Source of the DNA: a virus
Taxonomy: Duplodnaviria; Heunggongvirae; Uroviricota; Caudoviricetes
Strand: one strand, 5' to 3'
IMG/VR virus record: IMGVR_UViG_2563366846_000009
DNA: 25,833 bases
The position numbers were made by a program, and so were the translations under genes. A model generated the notes under the pieces. It did no database searches. It saw only the letters and a list, made by a program, of their open reading frames with translations, and was not told where the DNA came from. Below, in pieces: positions 12,554 to 20,959 of this stretch (the first letter of the stretch is position 1; each line of letters opens with the position of its first letter).

Positions 12554-12570
12554 TGGGGCTGTCCTTTTTA
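12540..12570. terminator. Bidirectional intrinsic terminator between convergent Q and the 174-aa gene
   Basis: Hairpin cagccccgtgatggggctg flanked by an A-run upstream and tccttttta downstream, so it reads as stem plus U-tract on both strands. The Q stop codon sits in the loop. Confidence 0.6.
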
Positions 12571-13092
12571 CCAGAGTTGAACCATTTTCTGGGTGCCGTC
12601 AGGCTTGAGATTATCAATTTCAGAGAGAACGTAATATTGAATGGCTTCACAAACGGTGGTGTATGGTGAATTACCTTCTTTAAGTGGCACGATATTATTA
12701 TTAACGCGAACCTGTATTTCATCGTTATACATTGCGATCGAAAGAGGAGTATGTACGAACGCGACTTCGCCAGGTGTGTCGTCAACCACTGTCTCAATGC
12801 TAAAAGTCAGTTTTCGCTCATCATTGCTGCCTCTTGCTTTGGGGGTTGCGGCAGGAATCTGGGATAAAGGCATTCTGCGAAATCCTTCGGCCGTTTCCAG
12901 TCCGCATGAAACGTAATGCTGGCGATTACCGTCGATATCTGTCCACGCTTGTGACGGCAGATCCAGCGAGATTTCATAAGCATCAACAATTCCCTGGGCA
13001 AGGCGTACAAGCGGGGTCAGGTCTTCATTGCGGCGAAAGCTCTCCTTTACCTGCTCTCGTTTTTCTCTTAACTGCTTGTAATTAATGACCAT
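12568..13092 (-). CDS. Hypothetical 174-aa protein, low-GC cargo gene next to the portal
   Basis: ORF with ATG at 13092 preceded by GGAGG at 8-nt spacing; the track extends it to a GTG at 13131. No recognisable motif. Markedly AT-richer than flanking phage genes. Confidence 0.55.
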   Translation of the reverse strand: MVINYKQLREKREQVKESFRRNEDLTPLVRLAQGIVDAYEISLDLPSQAWTDIDGNRQHYVSCGLETAEGFRRMPLSQIPAATPKARGSNDERKLTFSIETVVDDTPGEVAFVHTPLSIAMYNDEIQVRVNNNIVPLKEGNSPYTTVCEAIQYYVLSEIDNLKPDGTQKMVQLW

Positions 13093-13504: not shown

Positions 13505-13624
13505 AAAAAACGCGTTTTTTTGTGCATGCACGGATCCTTGACGGATCCAGCCGCCATGCGGGCCGGAAGGGTAAAAAGTCGTTCAAAAAAATTGTGCAAA
13601 TTTGTGCACTATTGTGCATTGAAA
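13505..13624. promoter_or_regulatory. Cluster of palindromes and 10-bp-phased TTGTGCA direct repeats in a 520-bp non-coding region
   Basis: Palindrome aaaaaacgcgtttttt (13505..13520), palindrome gtgcatgcac (13522..13531), ggatcc-N4-ggatcc (13532..13547), then TTGTGCA at 13593, 13603 and 13613. Confidence 0.45.
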
Positions 13625-13650
13625 TAAACGCCCTGGAGGAGGGCGTTTTA
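13624..13650 (-). terminator. Intrinsic terminator downstream of the 135-aa gene
   Basis: Stem aacgccct / agggcgtt with loop ggagg directly after the stop at 13652; minus strand continues tttatttc. Confidence 0.55.
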
Positions 13651-13651
13651 C

Positions 13652-14059
13652 TTATCTTTTATAGCCTTGCCCCTTCCTGGCCAGCGCCCTGATGGCCGGG
13701 CGTGCCAACACCATATTTTGGCAATGATGAATTGCCCGGCAAAATTCATCTCTACCCATTGGATGCTCAACTGGCAACGTTAAATACAGGTTCCATGCGT
13801 CGCCTAAAAGTTGGGCTATCTTTTGTTCTTCAGATGTCAGCAAGCAAGCGGTATCCGTAAAATAATCATACTTTTCATGTATGTTATTTAACGGTTTTGT
13901 CTGTAGTGCAGCCTGAGCTATACGGTATGCCTGAAGCATACTGGCGTCGTTGATATCCATTCCGAACGGAATTTCTGATGATTGTGACTCTGCATCTTCA
14001 AGCCTGGCAATTTCTTTACGTAAGAAGTATTTCAACTCTTGTTTCTGTTTTCTGTTCAT
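13652..14059 (-). CDS. Hypothetical 135-aa protein, translationally coupled to the ClpX-zinc-finger gene
   Basis: ATG overlaps the upstream stop (ATGA at 14056..14059). Low GC. No recognisable motif. Confidence 0.6.
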
Positions 14060-14388
14060 GCGTTTTTTTCCTTTTTGTCTGTCACTTCTTTCCTGATAAT
14101 TTCATTGCACAAATCCACGCACTCATTGCAGATGTAAACAGACGGTCCGGCAATCACCTTTGTGACTTCGTACTGGGATTTATTGCAGAAACTGCAATAA
14201 ACCGTCTTCTCGCCTGAAGTCCATGTTTTGCTGGTTTCGCCAGACATCAGTTGTTTGAGGTCTTTTTCACGACGAAGAACTATCTGGCCACATTCAGCTA
14301 TTTTTTGGATGTTGACATTTTCTTCTTTCGCCAGCGCTTCCATCCGCTCAATCAGTCGCTGCGCTTTTTCTCTGTCAATGTGTTGCAT
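14056..14388 (-). CDS. Small protein with C-terminal ClpX-type C4 zinc-binding domain
   Basis: Residues [38 protein letters not shown] are near-identical to the ClpX N-terminal zinc-binding domain, with all four Cys conserved. No AAA+ module follows; the first about 55 aa are unrelated. Confidence 0.85.
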
Positions 14389-14653
14389 TGTGTCCCCCTT
14401 GTTTATGTTCCCGGGTTAAAGTCATCAGGGCGGATGCGCCCTGATGTTGTGTTATTCGGGAAATAACGCCCGGATATTTCCGGCCATCTGACTGGTTATC
14501 TGTGCGGTTGGTACTGGCTGTGACACGGGGCGTTCTGTCCTACAATCAACCTCAGAGCATGGGCTATCCGGGATGGCCTCATACCACGCCAGCGTCGACT
14601 GATAGTTTTGTGCTGCCTCACGCAGTGCCTGGTAATTAATTTCGCTCACTGGT
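14389..14653. repeat. Copy B of a duplicated module (block P 14389..14541 plus block G 14542..14653)
   Basis: Block P is about 93 percent identical to 15601..15756 (3' end of parR, intergenic hairpin, RBS and ATG of the next gene). Block G is about 90 percent identical to 15493..15603 (5' end of the 213-aa gene). Block order is swapped relative to copy A. Confidence 0.75.
14452..14649 (-). CDS. Small chimeric ORF (65 aa from a GTG start): conserved SEINYQALREAAQNYQSTLAWYEAI motif fused to a ParR-like C-terminal tail
   Basis: GTG at 14649 is preceded by GGAGG at 6-nt spacing. The N-terminal 25 aa match the 213-aa protein exactly despite six synonymous DNA changes. The C-terminal 27 aa (ERPVSQPVPTAQITSQMAGNIRALFPE) match the ParR-like protein tail. 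The track calls a longer 98-aa version from 14748. Confidence 0.4.
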   Translation of the reverse strand: MSEINYQALREAAQNYQSTLAWYEAIPDSPCSEVDCRTERPVSQPVPTAQITSQMAGNIRALFPE

Positions 14654-14965
14654 TGCCTCCTGTTTGAATCTGCGCACGGAAAGAATTGGGCATTTTGTAA
14701 TCCCGCCCTCTTTCTCCCATCGGAGGAGCGGGAATCGATATGCTTCAAAATTAAGCCCCGCAGAGCGATCGCTTTGGAAGCATTTCTTACCTACCACCCA
14801 AACGTTTTCGAATCGACGCTCAATGCGAACTGCCGTCCTCCATCCGAATGGCGCGCCTGCATTTACGGCTGCATTTTTTGTCGGAAAAGTTGGCACGGAT
14901 GACACAATTTCATCAACACGCACGCTTAGGTGGCAATCGTCGACATAACTAATTGAAGCTCTCAT
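14636..14965 (-). CDS. Hypothetical 109-aa protein, coupled to the 213-aa gene
   Basis: ATG at 14965 overlaps the 213-aa stop (ATGA). No recognisable motif. Confidence 0.5.
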   Translation of the reverse strand: MRASISYVDDCHLSVRVDEIVSSVPTFPTKNAAVNAGAPFGWRTAVRIERRFENVWVVGKKCFQSDRSAGLNFEAYRFPLLRWEKEGGITKCPILSVRRFKQEATSERN

Positions 14966-15603
14966 GACTGAACTCCTTTGCGAAGCTGCTCCGCACAATG
15001 CAGCAGGGCGTCCGTCGCTTCTTTCACCGTAACGATGTCGCCATCGTCCAGCCCGGCAACCGTCGCGTCCTTAACGAACACCGAGCAAAGGTCATTAAAC
15101 GCCTGCGCTCGTACTTCAGCCAGAAAAGCATTGGTGGCTGGGGTTTCCGGCAATAATCCGCCAACCAGTTCTATTTCTGTTCTGAACCGGGAACTAGACA
15201 CAACGCGATAAGTCAGGTTCGGCATTCTGGCTGCCACTTGCATCTCAAACTCCTCTCCAGATTCCAGCCCGGCTTCATGGGCGTAATCAAGCGGGCTTCT
15301 GACAGGCTCTGAAGCTTCGCCGCCCCAGTAAATCAGGTTCGACTTCAGCCCTGCATTCTCCGCAGCCAGCACCGCAAGATTAGCCTCCAGCTCTGCAATA
15401 CGCTTGTTTTGGGCTTCCCGCTCATCCAGCAGCTCGGCGATAATGTCCATTTCCTGATGACGGATTTGACGCTTAAACGCCGCCACTGCTTCGCTACAAT
15501 CCTGCTCAGCATTTGGGTTATCCGTGATGGCCTCATACCACGCCAGCGTCGATTGATAGTTTTGTGCCGCCTCACGTAATGCCTGATAGTTGATTTCGCT
15601 CAT
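14962..15603 (-). CDS. Hypothetical 213-aa protein with conserved N-terminal motif and central coiled-coil-like region
   Basis: ATG preceded by AAGGAG. Heptad-like stretch REAQNKRIAELEANLAVLAAENAGLKSNL and an acidic C-terminal half. Possible resemblance to Ead/Ea22-like prophage proteins is unverified. Confidence 0.65.
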   Translation of the reverse strand: MSEINYQALREAAQNYQSTLAWYEAITDNPNAEQDCSEAVAAFKRQIRHQEMDIIAELLDEREAQNKRIAELEANLAVLAAENAGLKSNLIYWGGEASEPVRSPLDYAHEAGLESGEEFEMQVAARMPNLTYRVVSSSRFRTEIELVGGLLPETPATNAFLAEVRAQAFNDLCSVFVKDATVAGLDDGDIVTVKEATDALLHCAEQLRKGVQS

Positions 15604-15756
15604 TATGTCGTTCTCCTTGTTTATGCTCTGAGGTGGAGATCAGGACGAACTCGCCCTGACGTTGTGTTATTCAGGAAATAACGCCCGGATATTTTCAGCC
15701 ATCTGACTGGTTATCTGTGCGGTTGGTGCTGGCTGTGACACGGGGCGTTCCGTCCT
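15493..15756. repeat. Copy A of the duplicated module (block G 15493..15603, block P 15601..15756)
   Basis: Counterpart of 14389..14653; includes the imperfect hairpin caggacgaactcgccctg just after the parR stop. Confidence 0.75.
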
Positions 15757-15978
15757 GTTTTGTGTCACTGATAACGCCTCATCGTCAGCCCATGCAGCCA
15801 GTCGGTAAGCCTCTGCCGGATTCATTTTCAGAAGTGCCAGCCCGGCCATAAAAGCCACGCGTTGACCGCTTTTGTGGGCTTCTGGTGTAAGGCTGTCCAG
15901 CCAGGCGCATGCTTCGCCTTCGTTCTTGACGGCGGCGGGCTTCAGATAGAAACTTATCCTCCTGGTTGATGTCGCCAT
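15667..15978 (-). CDS. parR: ParR-like partition adaptor
   Basis: ATG at 15978 sits 4 nt after the parM stop with AAGGAG upstream. The 103-aa product aligns by eye with plasmid R1 ParR (ISFYLKP..., AGLAL..., C-terminal NIRALFPE versus ILRSLFPKE). The track shows a longer ORF from 16113. Confidence 0.7.
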   Translation of the reverse strand: MATSTRRISFYLKPAAVKNEGEACAWLDSLTPEAHKSGQRVAFMAGLALLKMNPAEAYRLAAWADDEALSVTQNRTERPVSQPAPTAQITSQMAENIRALFPE

Positions 15979-15982
15979 TGAT

Positions 15983-16942
15983 TTACTCCTTGTCCATTGC
16001 GTGCAGCCCATTAACCAGAGCAAACTGTGGCACCCCGTCCGCAATGAAAGTCGCATTAACTCCGCAGGCTTCGCGGATAGCGGGTGCCACAATCTCCGCT
16101 CCTCCACCGACAACCATCACCCGCCCGTAACCCGAAAAAACCGCCAGCGCGCGGATCACGCGTTGCTTCAGTGTTTCTTCCTTTTCACGAATAACCGCCA
16201 TCAGGCTGGCGTAATGCGCGTCATTGTGGATGTGCTGGCGCAGCCAGGCTTCATCATGGCGATGTTCGATAATGGTATTGGCGATGTGGTGACTGGTGCG
16301 CATACCGTTAGTGGCCATCACCGACAGTACGGCATCGGCCATCAGAGAAACGCCTACGTGTGGATCGCAAAACACCTGGCTGATACCTGCCAGTTGCCCC
16401 TGAACCTTTGCCACATCCAGCGTGGTTCCGCCCAAATCCACAATCAGCAGGGATTCAAACGGACTCATGTCAGCCAGTGCCTTAAAGCCAGCCGGAATGG
16501 ATTCAGGCATAACCCGCACGTTACGGATAGTGAATGCTTCGCCGTTCTGGTACTTCACCGGGCGCATAACGTTCGCTTTTTTGCGGTTGATGTTGGCCAT
16601 GTCCGGCTGTGCGTTTGTGTCGAAATACTCGCTCAGTGGCAGGGTGACAACCACATCCACCTCCTGTGGCGTGATGCCTGATTTGACCAGCGCGTGATGA
16701 ATGGCAATGACATTCACATCACTGTACTGGTATTGCGTGTCGGTTGTCTGGACAAAGCGATCGCTGACCGGATCAAAACCATAGCGCACGCCATCAAGCA
16801 TGTAGTTCGCGGGCTGCGTGCCACCGAACGGCGCAGACCATTCCGACTTGAAGCTGTTCGGGCTGATAGCGTTGCGGCGTTCGCCGTTCTCAGTCCATGC
16901 CAGCTTGATGTTGGTGGAGCCGTCGTCGATACAAATTTTCAT
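15983..16942 (-). CDS. parM: ParM/StbA actin-like partition ATPase
   Basis: 319-aa protein with extensive colinear similarity to R1 ParM: IDDGSTNIKL, ISPNSFK, YSDVNV, HHAL, MPESIPAG, SLLI(V/I)DLGGTTLD, LSGIS, GVSL, GGGAE, LVNG. Confidence 0.9.
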   Translation of the reverse strand: MKICIDDGSTNIKLAWTENGERRNAISPNSFKSEWSAPFGGTQPANYMLDGVRYGFDPVSDRFVQTTDTQYQYSDVNVIAIHHALVKSGITPQEVDVVVTLPLSEYFDTNAQPDMANINRKKANVMRPVKYQNGEAFTIRNVRVMPESIPAGFKALADMSPFESLLIVDLGGTTLDVAKVQGQLAGISQVFCDPHVGVSLMADAVLSVMATNGMRTSHHIANTIIEHRHDEAWLRQHIHNDAHYASLMAVIREKEETLKQRVIRALAVFSGYGRVMVVGGGAEIVAPAIREACGVNATFIADGVPQFALVNGLHAMDKE

Positions 16943-16971
16943 GTCGCTTTTCCTTATGTTGATTAATTAAT

Positions 16972-17086
16972 CGTTTACGGGATTCTGAAATCCCGCTTTT
17001 GCCTGTTTTGTGCGCGCTTCATATATCGCGGCACGTTTTTTGCTCATTTACGGGATTTGTGAATCCCGTTTTTGTCTGTTTTTTGT
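16972..17086. repeat. Two tandem about 40-bp repeats, each a 7-bp-stem hairpin plus T-tract, between the parM start and the A stop
   Basis: R1 at 16972..17012 (cgggatt ctga aatcccg, then cttttgcctgttttgtg) and R2 at 17044..17086 (cgggatt tgtg aatcccg, then tttttgtctgttttttg). R2 lies inside the last about 22 codons of the A ORF. Confidence 0.6.
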
Positions 17087-20516: not shown

Positions 20517-20692
20517 GGTGTGGCCTCGTACGTAGTGAGTTGTGATAACCCACCGCCGCGAGTTGAGAATCTCGGGGTGGCAGGACGTATGGGGTTCTCA
20601 ACACCGGCTACGCACGAATCCGGCCCGACTGAAGTCGGCCCCATACGCCCCGCCATAATTCTGATGCGAAAAAGACGTGGCGATACGGTACG

Positions 20693-20722
20693 CACAAAAA
20701 AACCGCTGGCGCGGTTGTGCGC
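20693..20722 (-). terminator. Candidate minus-strand intrinsic terminator inside a non-coding region
   Basis: Minus strand reads aaccgc gcca gcggtt followed by tttttttg. Stem is only 6 bp. Confidence 0.35.
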
Positions 20723-20959
20723 GTGCATAGTCAGCAGGTTGAGAATCCCGGCACCCGTTTTATGAGGTGCAGCGGAAATGTAACCTGACTGATTGCGGCA
20801 TGGCAAGCGGTTTTTTTGTGTGTGCATATACAGTTTTACTCCGTTTGATCCGGTTTTTTTTGCCTTCAACCGGAAAAGAAGGGTGTGTTACGCTTGAAGC
20901 ACCCGCTGTTCCGTCAAAAACAAGGCGGGTGCTTTGTTCAACACACGTAAGGAAAATAA

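Follow-up and report, generated by a model that had tools for sequence, protein, structure and literature searches.

We analyzed a 25,833-nt stretch of viral DNA (IMG/VR record IMGVR_UViG_2563366846_000009; hereafter, the window) and found that in a 65-aa open reading frame (ORF) at 14452..14649, 36 codons from the N-terminal end of an Ead/Ea22 gene continue, exactly in frame, into the last 29 codons of parR. Comparison with related phages and prophages suggests that this ORF is very probably a recent, rare seam left by illegitimate recombination between two P88-like prophage variants.

The window carries a P2-like prophage operon with a repeated gene boundary

The window is a P88-like (P2-like) E. 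coli prophage. The backbone is 96-98% identical to coliphage P88 (Xuanwuvirus) and to many E. coli prophages, and positions 13600-17000 are identical to a Logan assembly contig. The minus strand holds one P2-like prophage operon, running from the replication endonuclease gene gpA through a 135-aa gene (Table 1). Neither the 135-aa gene nor the 109-aa gene matched a Pfam family. Within the operon, parM is followed by parR after 4 nt, the adjoining arrangement of a type II ParMRC locus, and the window ParM aligned over its full length with the R1 ParM structures 1MWK and 4A62 (E about 1e-92; 3.5e-92 to R1 ParM). We looked for parC iterons upstream of parM, where there are only 76 bp and where the repeat finder listed none. 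Separately, an array of three TTGTGCA copies was observed at 13592-13618, away from parM, and is a candidate parC centromere.

Table 1. Features of the window from gpA to the end of the right arm, listed in the direction of the genes
Feature	Positions	Strand	Remarks
gpA, replication endonuclease	19841-17019	minus	
parM, actin-like segregation ATPase, 319 aa	15983..16942	minus	Pfam StbA_N 2.5e-82, ParM_N 2.1e-68
parR/stbB-type adaptor, 103 aa	15667..15978	minus	PF10784 Plasmid_stab_B, 78.7 bits, residues 6-76 only
Tail copy B1 (parR residues 75-103)	15667-15756	minus	Includes the stop codon
Spacer IG1, intergenic, 63 nt	15604..15666	minus	Type II allele; stem-loop 15639-15660
Ead/Ea22-like protein, 213 aa	14962..15603	minus	PF13935, E 1.1e-11
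Head copy A1 (first 36 codons of the 213-aa Ea22-like gene)	15496-15603	minus	
109-aa gene	14636..14965	minus	No Pfam match; accompanies Ea22-like genes in lambdoid ea regions
Chimeric ORF, 65 aa	14452..14649	minus	Ea22 head and parR tail
A2 (36 Ea22 N-terminal codons of the 65-aa ORF)	14542-14649	minus	
B2 (29 parR tail codons and stop, in the 65-aa ORF)	14452-14541	minus	
Recombination joint	14541..14542	minus	Reads GATTGT, then AGGACAGAA
Spacer IG2, intergenic, 63 nt	14389..14451	minus	Type I allele; 10-bp stem-loop 14423-14446
ClpX C4 zinc-finger protein, 110 aa	14056..14388	minus	PF06689, E 6.8e-18
135-aa gene, end of the type I right arm	13652..14059	minus	99.8% identity to L001

Two sequence blocks occur twice in the window with their order swapped, as originally predicted; in the direction of the genes, copy 1 reads tail-spacer-head and copy 2 reads head-tail-spacer. 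The repeat finder paired 14424-14541 with 15639-15756 (D1; 118 nt, 92% identical), extended within the spacer by 14392-14410 against 15610-15628 (D6; 84%), and paired 14540-14648 with 15494-15602 (D2; 109 nt, 85% identical). BLAST E-values between the copies ranged from 1e-30 to 3e-45, so the repeats are not due to chance. The predicted stem-loops of the two spacers had folding energies of -17.4 kcal/mol (z-score -2.8) for IG1 and -22.9 kcal/mol (z-score -5.3) for IG2.

The 65-aa ORF joins an Ea22-like start to the parR tail

The GTG start codon of the 65-aa ORF lies 6 nt after a GGAGG motif, and the first 14 nt of the ORF are shared with the 3' end of the 109-aa gene upstream. Residues 2-26 are the same as those of the 213-aa protein, while six of their codons are synonymously different (7 nt); homology to the 213-aa protein then continues through codon 36, where codons 27-36 include five amino-acid replacements. 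Aligned with the ParR tail, the last 29 residues show two substitutions (A to V and E to G) and three synonymous changes. There is no linker between the two parts, as head codon 36 directly abuts parR codon 75 at 14542/14541. The original prediction had described an ORF with a GGAGG ribosome-binding site (RBS) and a GTG start, 25 leading residues equal to those of the 213-aa protein despite six synonymous sites, and a ParR-like tail with two substitutions. All of these were recovered, with the head homology reaching further, to codon 36, and with a tail of 29 residues in place of the 27 first proposed.

The Ead/Ea22 profile PF13935 matched the ORF weakly (29.4 bits, cut-off 27), with residues 2-33 covering profile positions 1-32 of 139. 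PF10784, the ParR N-terminal DNA-binding/dimerisation domain, was not detected in the 65-aa ORF but was detected in the 103-aa ParR. A single-sequence AlphaFold model of the product, of modest confidence, consisted of a helix at residues 6-25, a coil, and a second helix at residues 48-62 (mean pLDDT 64). The product is identical to a protein from E. coli KTE15, ELC24004.1.

Each copy of the repeat matches a different prophage allele

Two arrangements downstream of parR are found in related prophages. In type I, which includes nearly all relatives (L001-L004), parR is followed directly by the ClpX-zinc-finger gene. In type II, the second common arrangement (L005 and L006), parR is followed by a single Ead/Ea22-like gene, with no clpX. 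Both joints are common: among 5426 complete E. coli genomes, 217 had the parR-Ea22 joint and 183 had the parR-clpX joint. Strain UMNF18 carries one prophage of each type, showing that the parents can meet.

Compared with type I prophages, the window is longer by exactly 1215 bases, the distance that separates the repeats. The block comprising tail B1 and IG1 (15604-15756) is 97-98% identical to the type II loci L005 and L006, versus 85-86% identical to type I parR-clpX prophages, and head A1 is 100% identical to L006. The block comprising tail B2 and IG2 (14389-14541) is instead 97-98% identical to the type I loci L001-L004, the clpX gene of the window is 100% identical to those of L001 and L004, and the segment spanning the clpX start, the second spacer, and the end of the second tail (14340-14480) is identical to UTI89 at 141/141 positions. 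The first copy is type II and the second copy is type I, and identity between the two window copies is just ~86%. Because each copy is closer to a different external allele (97-100%) than to the other copy, the repeats were not made in place by a local duplication; they are two alleles that already existed and were joined.

The middle of the insert resembles lambdoid ea regions

In P22-like and HK phages, genes of the EaE/ORF9 type match the final third of the 213-aa gene at ~92%, and both this segment and the 109-aa gene are matched by HK106 and P22-like phages. At one locus, L007, an Ea22-like gene (216 aa), a hypothetical gene (109 aa), and a second Ea22-like gene (114 aa) occur in that order, and this stretch is 96.6% identical to positions 14577-14988 of the window. 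The middle of the insert comes from lambdoid ea regions.

The start of the 65-aa ORF has the same background. Lambdoid Ea22-like genes (L007 and HK106) natively have the GGAGGCAACCAGTG start context and overlap the 109-aa gene by the same 14 nt, and the variant codons of copy 2, together with the GGAGG motif and GTG start, occur in full-length lambdoid genes, namely HK106_032 and the 114-aa gene of L007. Since these signals are shared with full-length genes, the RBS and GTG of the ORF represent the native start of an Ea22-like gene that has lost its body. Ead/Ea22 proteins are mosaics, in which a shared N-terminus and coiled coil are combined with varied C-terminal domains (PMC10834534).

The 65-aa ORF is known in one other context, a JGI contig (L047) in which a 198-aa Ea22-like gene directly precedes it. 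The DNA of the window and of L047 is identical from codon 7 of the ORF through the clpX start. The first ~10 codons of Ea22-like genes form a mosaic boundary, as the window agrees with HK106 as far as codon 11 and with L047 starting at codon 7. The differences between the window and L047 in codons 1-6 and upstream reflect further exchange with lambdoid sequence.

The joint is consistent with illegitimate recombination

At the joint, the parental sequences are GATTGTAGC (Ea22) and ACCAGGACAGAA (parR), which have only AG in common, and the hybrid reads GATTGT followed by AGGACAGAA. That the parents share no more than 2 nt at this point indicates illegitimate recombination. The original prediction had offered a recombination scar from cassette exchange as its alternative to a functional protein, and the comparative data support that alternative, given the different nearest allele of each copy and the ≤2 nt of microhomology.

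In the sequence of events that we propose, the left arm would come from a type II variant, with parR followed by an Ead/Ea22-like gene, that had previously gained an Ea22-109aa-Ea22 cassette of the lambdoid ea-region kind. The right arm would come from a type I variant, with parR followed by the ClpX-zinc-finger gene. A crossover that left the second Ea22-like gene at codon 36 and entered the incoming parR at codon 75 would have restored the clpX arm together with its own spacer, and would explain why the parR tail and the spacer downstream of it are now present twice in the window. The prior chance that such a crossover would be in frame is 1 in 3. The shortened Ea22 gene, with its native RBS and GTG, would then read into the parR tail and its stop codon. 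Because these signals are native, the ORF is probably translated, and in the product a flexible linker would connect the Ea22 helix at the N-terminus to the C-terminal helix of ParR. We judge this product to be a neutral by-product that would, at most, compete weakly with ParR for ParM.

We also considered whether the unusual residues CSEV, with which the Ea22 part ends, had been copied from the spacer via a 12-nt exact inverted match (I1). This match is probably due to chance, and the idea was dropped because natural Ea22 alleles with PDSPDAEVDC exist (P0006) and other inverted repeats are of similar quality.

The hybrid is rare and young

A search for the whole ORF among 5.8 billion protein clusters recovered one 90% cluster, containing 5 sequences from ~30 contigs: the representative, two full-length variants, one sequence with a two-residue in-frame deletion, and one partial sequence. 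The MSKIDYQ variant accounts for about 27 contigs. The hybrid joint was found in none of the 5426 complete E. coli genomes and in none of 100,044 species-representative genomes (GTDB), where an exact-pattern scan gave only chance matches in unrelated taxa. Exact-pattern scans likewise detected the joint in 0 IMG/VR contigs and 0 JGI metagenome records. The remaining matches to the tail were ordinary ParRs or fragments cut at contig ends, and the remaining matches to the head were Ea22-like proteins, including many shortened or frameshifted fragments of 37-84 aa. Together, these searches show the hybrid to be one recent, rare event amid frequent Ea22 debris. No frameshift or stop codon was seen in the ORF among the recovered copies, which are a small sample obtained through protein look-ups that would miss broken copies.

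Synonymous differences predate the fusion

The synonymous differences in the head had been taken as evidence of selection on the 65-aa peptide, with dN/dS on the shared codons suggested as a check. By the Nei-Gojobori method, head codons 2-26 gave a dS of 0.68 with a dN of 0, and the tail gave a dS of 0.16 with a dN of 0.03. The argument for selection does not follow from these values, as they compare two parental lineages rather than the ORF with its own ancestor: in the head, the differences separate two old, paralogous, full-length Ead/Ea22-like genes. Full-length lambdoid genes carry every synonymous variant seen in the second head copy, and a conserved N-terminal segment is a trait of the whole Ead/Ea22 family (PF13935; PMC10834534). 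Differences inherited from full-length Ea22-like paralogues show no selection on the 65-aa ORF. After the fusion, the sequence has hardly changed; B2 differs from a genuine parR tail at 1/97 nt. With a single cluster, and identical DNA from codon 7 onward in two contexts, a test for selection on the ORF itself has no power.

The hybrid keeps the complete ParR tail

The premise that the C-terminal region of R1 ParR contacts ParM, on which the proposed modulation of ParM was based, is correct. As described in PMC3794156, which cites Gayathri et al. 2012 for the peptide structure, R1 ParR contacts ParM through its C-terminal 17 residues, which bind between subdomains IA and IIA (PDB 4A62). The bound R1 peptide clashes with the next subunit in the ParM filament, and a free C-terminal peptide is also required in a distant ParR relative.

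In the window ParR, the tail falls outside the annotated domain, as PF10784 covers only residues 6-76. Residues 5-75 of R1-type ParR and residues 6-76 of P88 ParR both map to profile positions 1-71. With the break at residue 75, the hybrid lacks the DNA-binding domain altogether and retains all of the tail that follows it. The final 17-18 tail residues hardly vary between P88-like ParRs with different linkers, and the C-termini share an N-hydrophobic-x-x-L/M-hydrophobic pattern (R1, KNAMKLIN; IncI, RNAENMF; P88, ENIRALFPE). A MAFFT alignment instead placed NIRALFPE against an internal R1 segment, NILRSLFPKE; we rejected this placement, as it conflicts with the colinear Pfam domain coordinates. 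On the basis of that colinearity, the window tail was treated as equivalent to the post-domain tail of R1. A search of the PDB with the ParR sequence gave no useful match. Considering these similarities, it is reasonable to infer that the 65-aa product, if made, could bind ParM.

Alternative explanations

Some features of the ORF could be seen as running counter to a recombination seam. The reading frame is preserved across the fusion, the break falls at residue 75, exactly where the ParR Pfam domain (6-76) ends, so that the whole tail is kept, and the ORF is intact behind two different upstream cassettes (213+109+65 for the window, 198+65 for L047). As a functional decoy, the 65-aa protein would cap the ParR pocket of ParM, on monomers or filament ends, without bringing a DNA-binding domain, a reading we consider unlikely. 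That such a decoy would tune or block ParMR segregation of the phage itself, or of competing or resident ParMRC plasmids, is equally doubtful. The window ParM is a close homologue of R1 ParM, for which the C-terminal 17 residues of ParR are reported to suffice for binding (PDB 4A62), and the hybrid combines a complete post-domain tail, nearly invariant in its last 17 residues among P88-like ParRs and with a motif like those of the R1 and IncI C-termini, with native, strong translation signals. However, the completeness of the tail and the intact ORF in two contexts would be expected of a neutral young seam as well. Moreover, none of the 5426 complete E. coli genomes contains the hybrid, even though either parent occurs in hundreds of them; the hybrid has a single origin and a single joint, and no other tail-only ParR derivative was present among the homologues found. 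Sequence divergence since the fusion is essentially zero, which makes a signal of selection impossible.

The duplicated block of parR tail, spacer, and stem-loop could alternatively be a dedicated, portable recombination module for cassette swaps, with the duplication being part of its design. Type I and type II spacers do share their ends, TAACACAAC with the stem-loop on one side and CATAAACAAGG just before the start codon on the other, while the downstream gene differs, and a mosaic boundary is visible in the first ~10 codons of Ea22-like genes. The actual joint, however, lies inside two coding sequences with ≤2 nt of homology rather than in the spacer or at a shared boundary, and so does not support a dedicated module. 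The block is single-copy in all other relatives examined, and no recombinase or site signature is associated with it, leaving this explanation very unlikely. Least probable of all, to the point of being negligible, is that the repeats arose by segmental duplication within one genome or by chimeric assembly. The copies are direct repeats ~1.2 kb apart, as an in-situ duplication would leave them, but they are not each other's nearest relatives, and we rejected local duplication since each matches a different external allele better, at 97-100%. An assembly artefact was dismissed because assemblies made independently (NCBI, Logan, ENA, and JGI) contain this joint, which also occurs in two contexts.

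Significance

As a recombination seam, the 65-aa ORF offers a clean, dated example of phage mosaicism generating an in-frame chimeric ORF for which both parental alleles and the joint can be identified. Such an ORF is real but ordinary in kind, making it a useful illustration rather than a surprise. The ORF would matter more if its product binds ParM. Nature would then have supplied a ParR derivative made of the tail alone, which could serve as a simple tool or precedent for blocking actin-like segregation machines, and the question of why integrating P2-like prophages have ParMR would gain interest. Were the decoy reading true, the ORF would be a natural dominant-negative partition inhibitor caught at birth.

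Comparison with known systems

The window shares gpA, parM, parR, the ClpX-zinc-finger gene, portal, and terminase with P88/Xuanwuvirus prophages (KP063541; PMC5285337), at 96-98% identity. Unlike the window, P88 and nearly all of its relatives have parR followed directly by clpX or by one Ea22-like gene, and neither the 1215-bp insert nor the hybrid ORF is present in any of the P88 relatives examined. With Ead/Ea22-like proteins (PF13935; lambda Ea22), the 65-aa ORF has in common the amino-terminal segment and the native start context, whereas members of this family also have a central coiled coil and a C-terminal domain (PMC10834534). Both are missing from the ORF, as its Ea22 homology stops at codon 36 and the rest is parR tail, which makes it a fragment rather than a functional member of the family.

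The ParR tail of the window resembles the R1 ParR peptide in being extreme C-terminal, following the PF10784 domain, being paired with an R1-like ParM, being predicted to be helical, and containing the shared motif. The two do not align beyond that motif, and 27 residues follow the domain in the window versus 41 in R1. The R1 tail is carried on a DNA-binding dimer, whereas the hybrid tail is carried on a 36-residue Ea22 fragment.

Temperate phages are known to be mosaic, with joints formed by illegitimate recombination, for example in the lambdoid ea/nin regions and in the variable, non-essential right end of P2-like phages. The seam in the window has the features of such joints: a sharp transition between segments that each have near-identical counterparts elsewhere, scant or absent homology where they meet, a position in an accessory-gene region between replication/partition genes and cos, and a chimeric or shortened ORF remaining at the seam. 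It differs from a typical mosaic joint in that it happens to keep the reading frame, duplicates the parR tail together with the spacer, and unites two pieces whose functional identity can be recognised: the Ea22 N-terminus, conserved throughout its family, and the tail of ParR.

A repeat array downstream of the parM operon

An R1-like pair, ParM and ParR, is carried by this family of integrating P2-like prophages, which occurs in about one third of complete E. coli genomes, with the region matched in 2005 of 5426. We found no paper on the role of ParM/ParR in this family. TTGTGCA heptamers are located immediately past the gene that ends the parM operon. Since no iterons were reported in the 76 bp upstream of parM, the triple array could serve this ParR as its missing centromere, or could instead be an operator. 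The array is kept in P88-like prophages of both type I (parR then clpX) and type II (parR then Ea22).

Features of the parM region and adjacent prophage DNA
Feature	Position	Strand	Description
parM	15983-16942
parR	15667-15978
TTGTGCA heptamers (three)	13592, 13602, 13612		exact 10-bp spacing
Fourth TTGTGCA heptamer	13520		all four within 13520-13618
Stem-loop, spacer 2	14423-14446		10 perfect pairs; z-score -5.3
Stem-loop, spacer 1	15639-15660		8-9 pairs including G-U; z-score -2.8
174-aa ORF	12568-13092	-	between portal gene and TTGTGCA array
C4 antisense RNA and isrK	20573-20770	-	adjacent; Rfam, above gathering score

Variable cassettes and the hybrid joint

The Ea22-like gene preceding the 65-aa Ea22-parR hybrid ORF has two forms, one of 198 aa in L047 (512-1108), the second known context of the hybrid, and one of 213 aa in the window (14962-15603). 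They have ~170 N-terminal residues in common and differ in their C-terminal domains, and the 109-aa gene is found in the window form only. These differences show that cassette exchange with lambdoid ea regions went on after the joint had formed. The 174-aa ORF, for which a Pfam search returned zero matches, lies in another variable slot, as its place in the type I locus L001 is taken by no more than ~480 bp without annotation.

Near the joint, ATGCTCTGAGGT forms a 12-nt exact inverted match between the end of the hybrid's Ea22 part (CSEV; 14549-14560), which is unusually divergent, and spacer 1 (15623-15634). It may be a trace of a templated patch at the joint, but the match is probably due to chance.

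Structured RNAs

Both spacer alleles carry a stable stem-loop 3' of the parR-type stop codon. Neither has a U-run in sense orientation; the spacer 2 copy scores as terminator-like when read on the plus strand. Elsewhere, Rfam matches to C4 antisense RNA, at 75.5 bits, and to isrK, at 58.4 bits, form a pair that resembles a c4-isrK antirepressor-control module of the P1/P7 type, here within a P2-like prophage.
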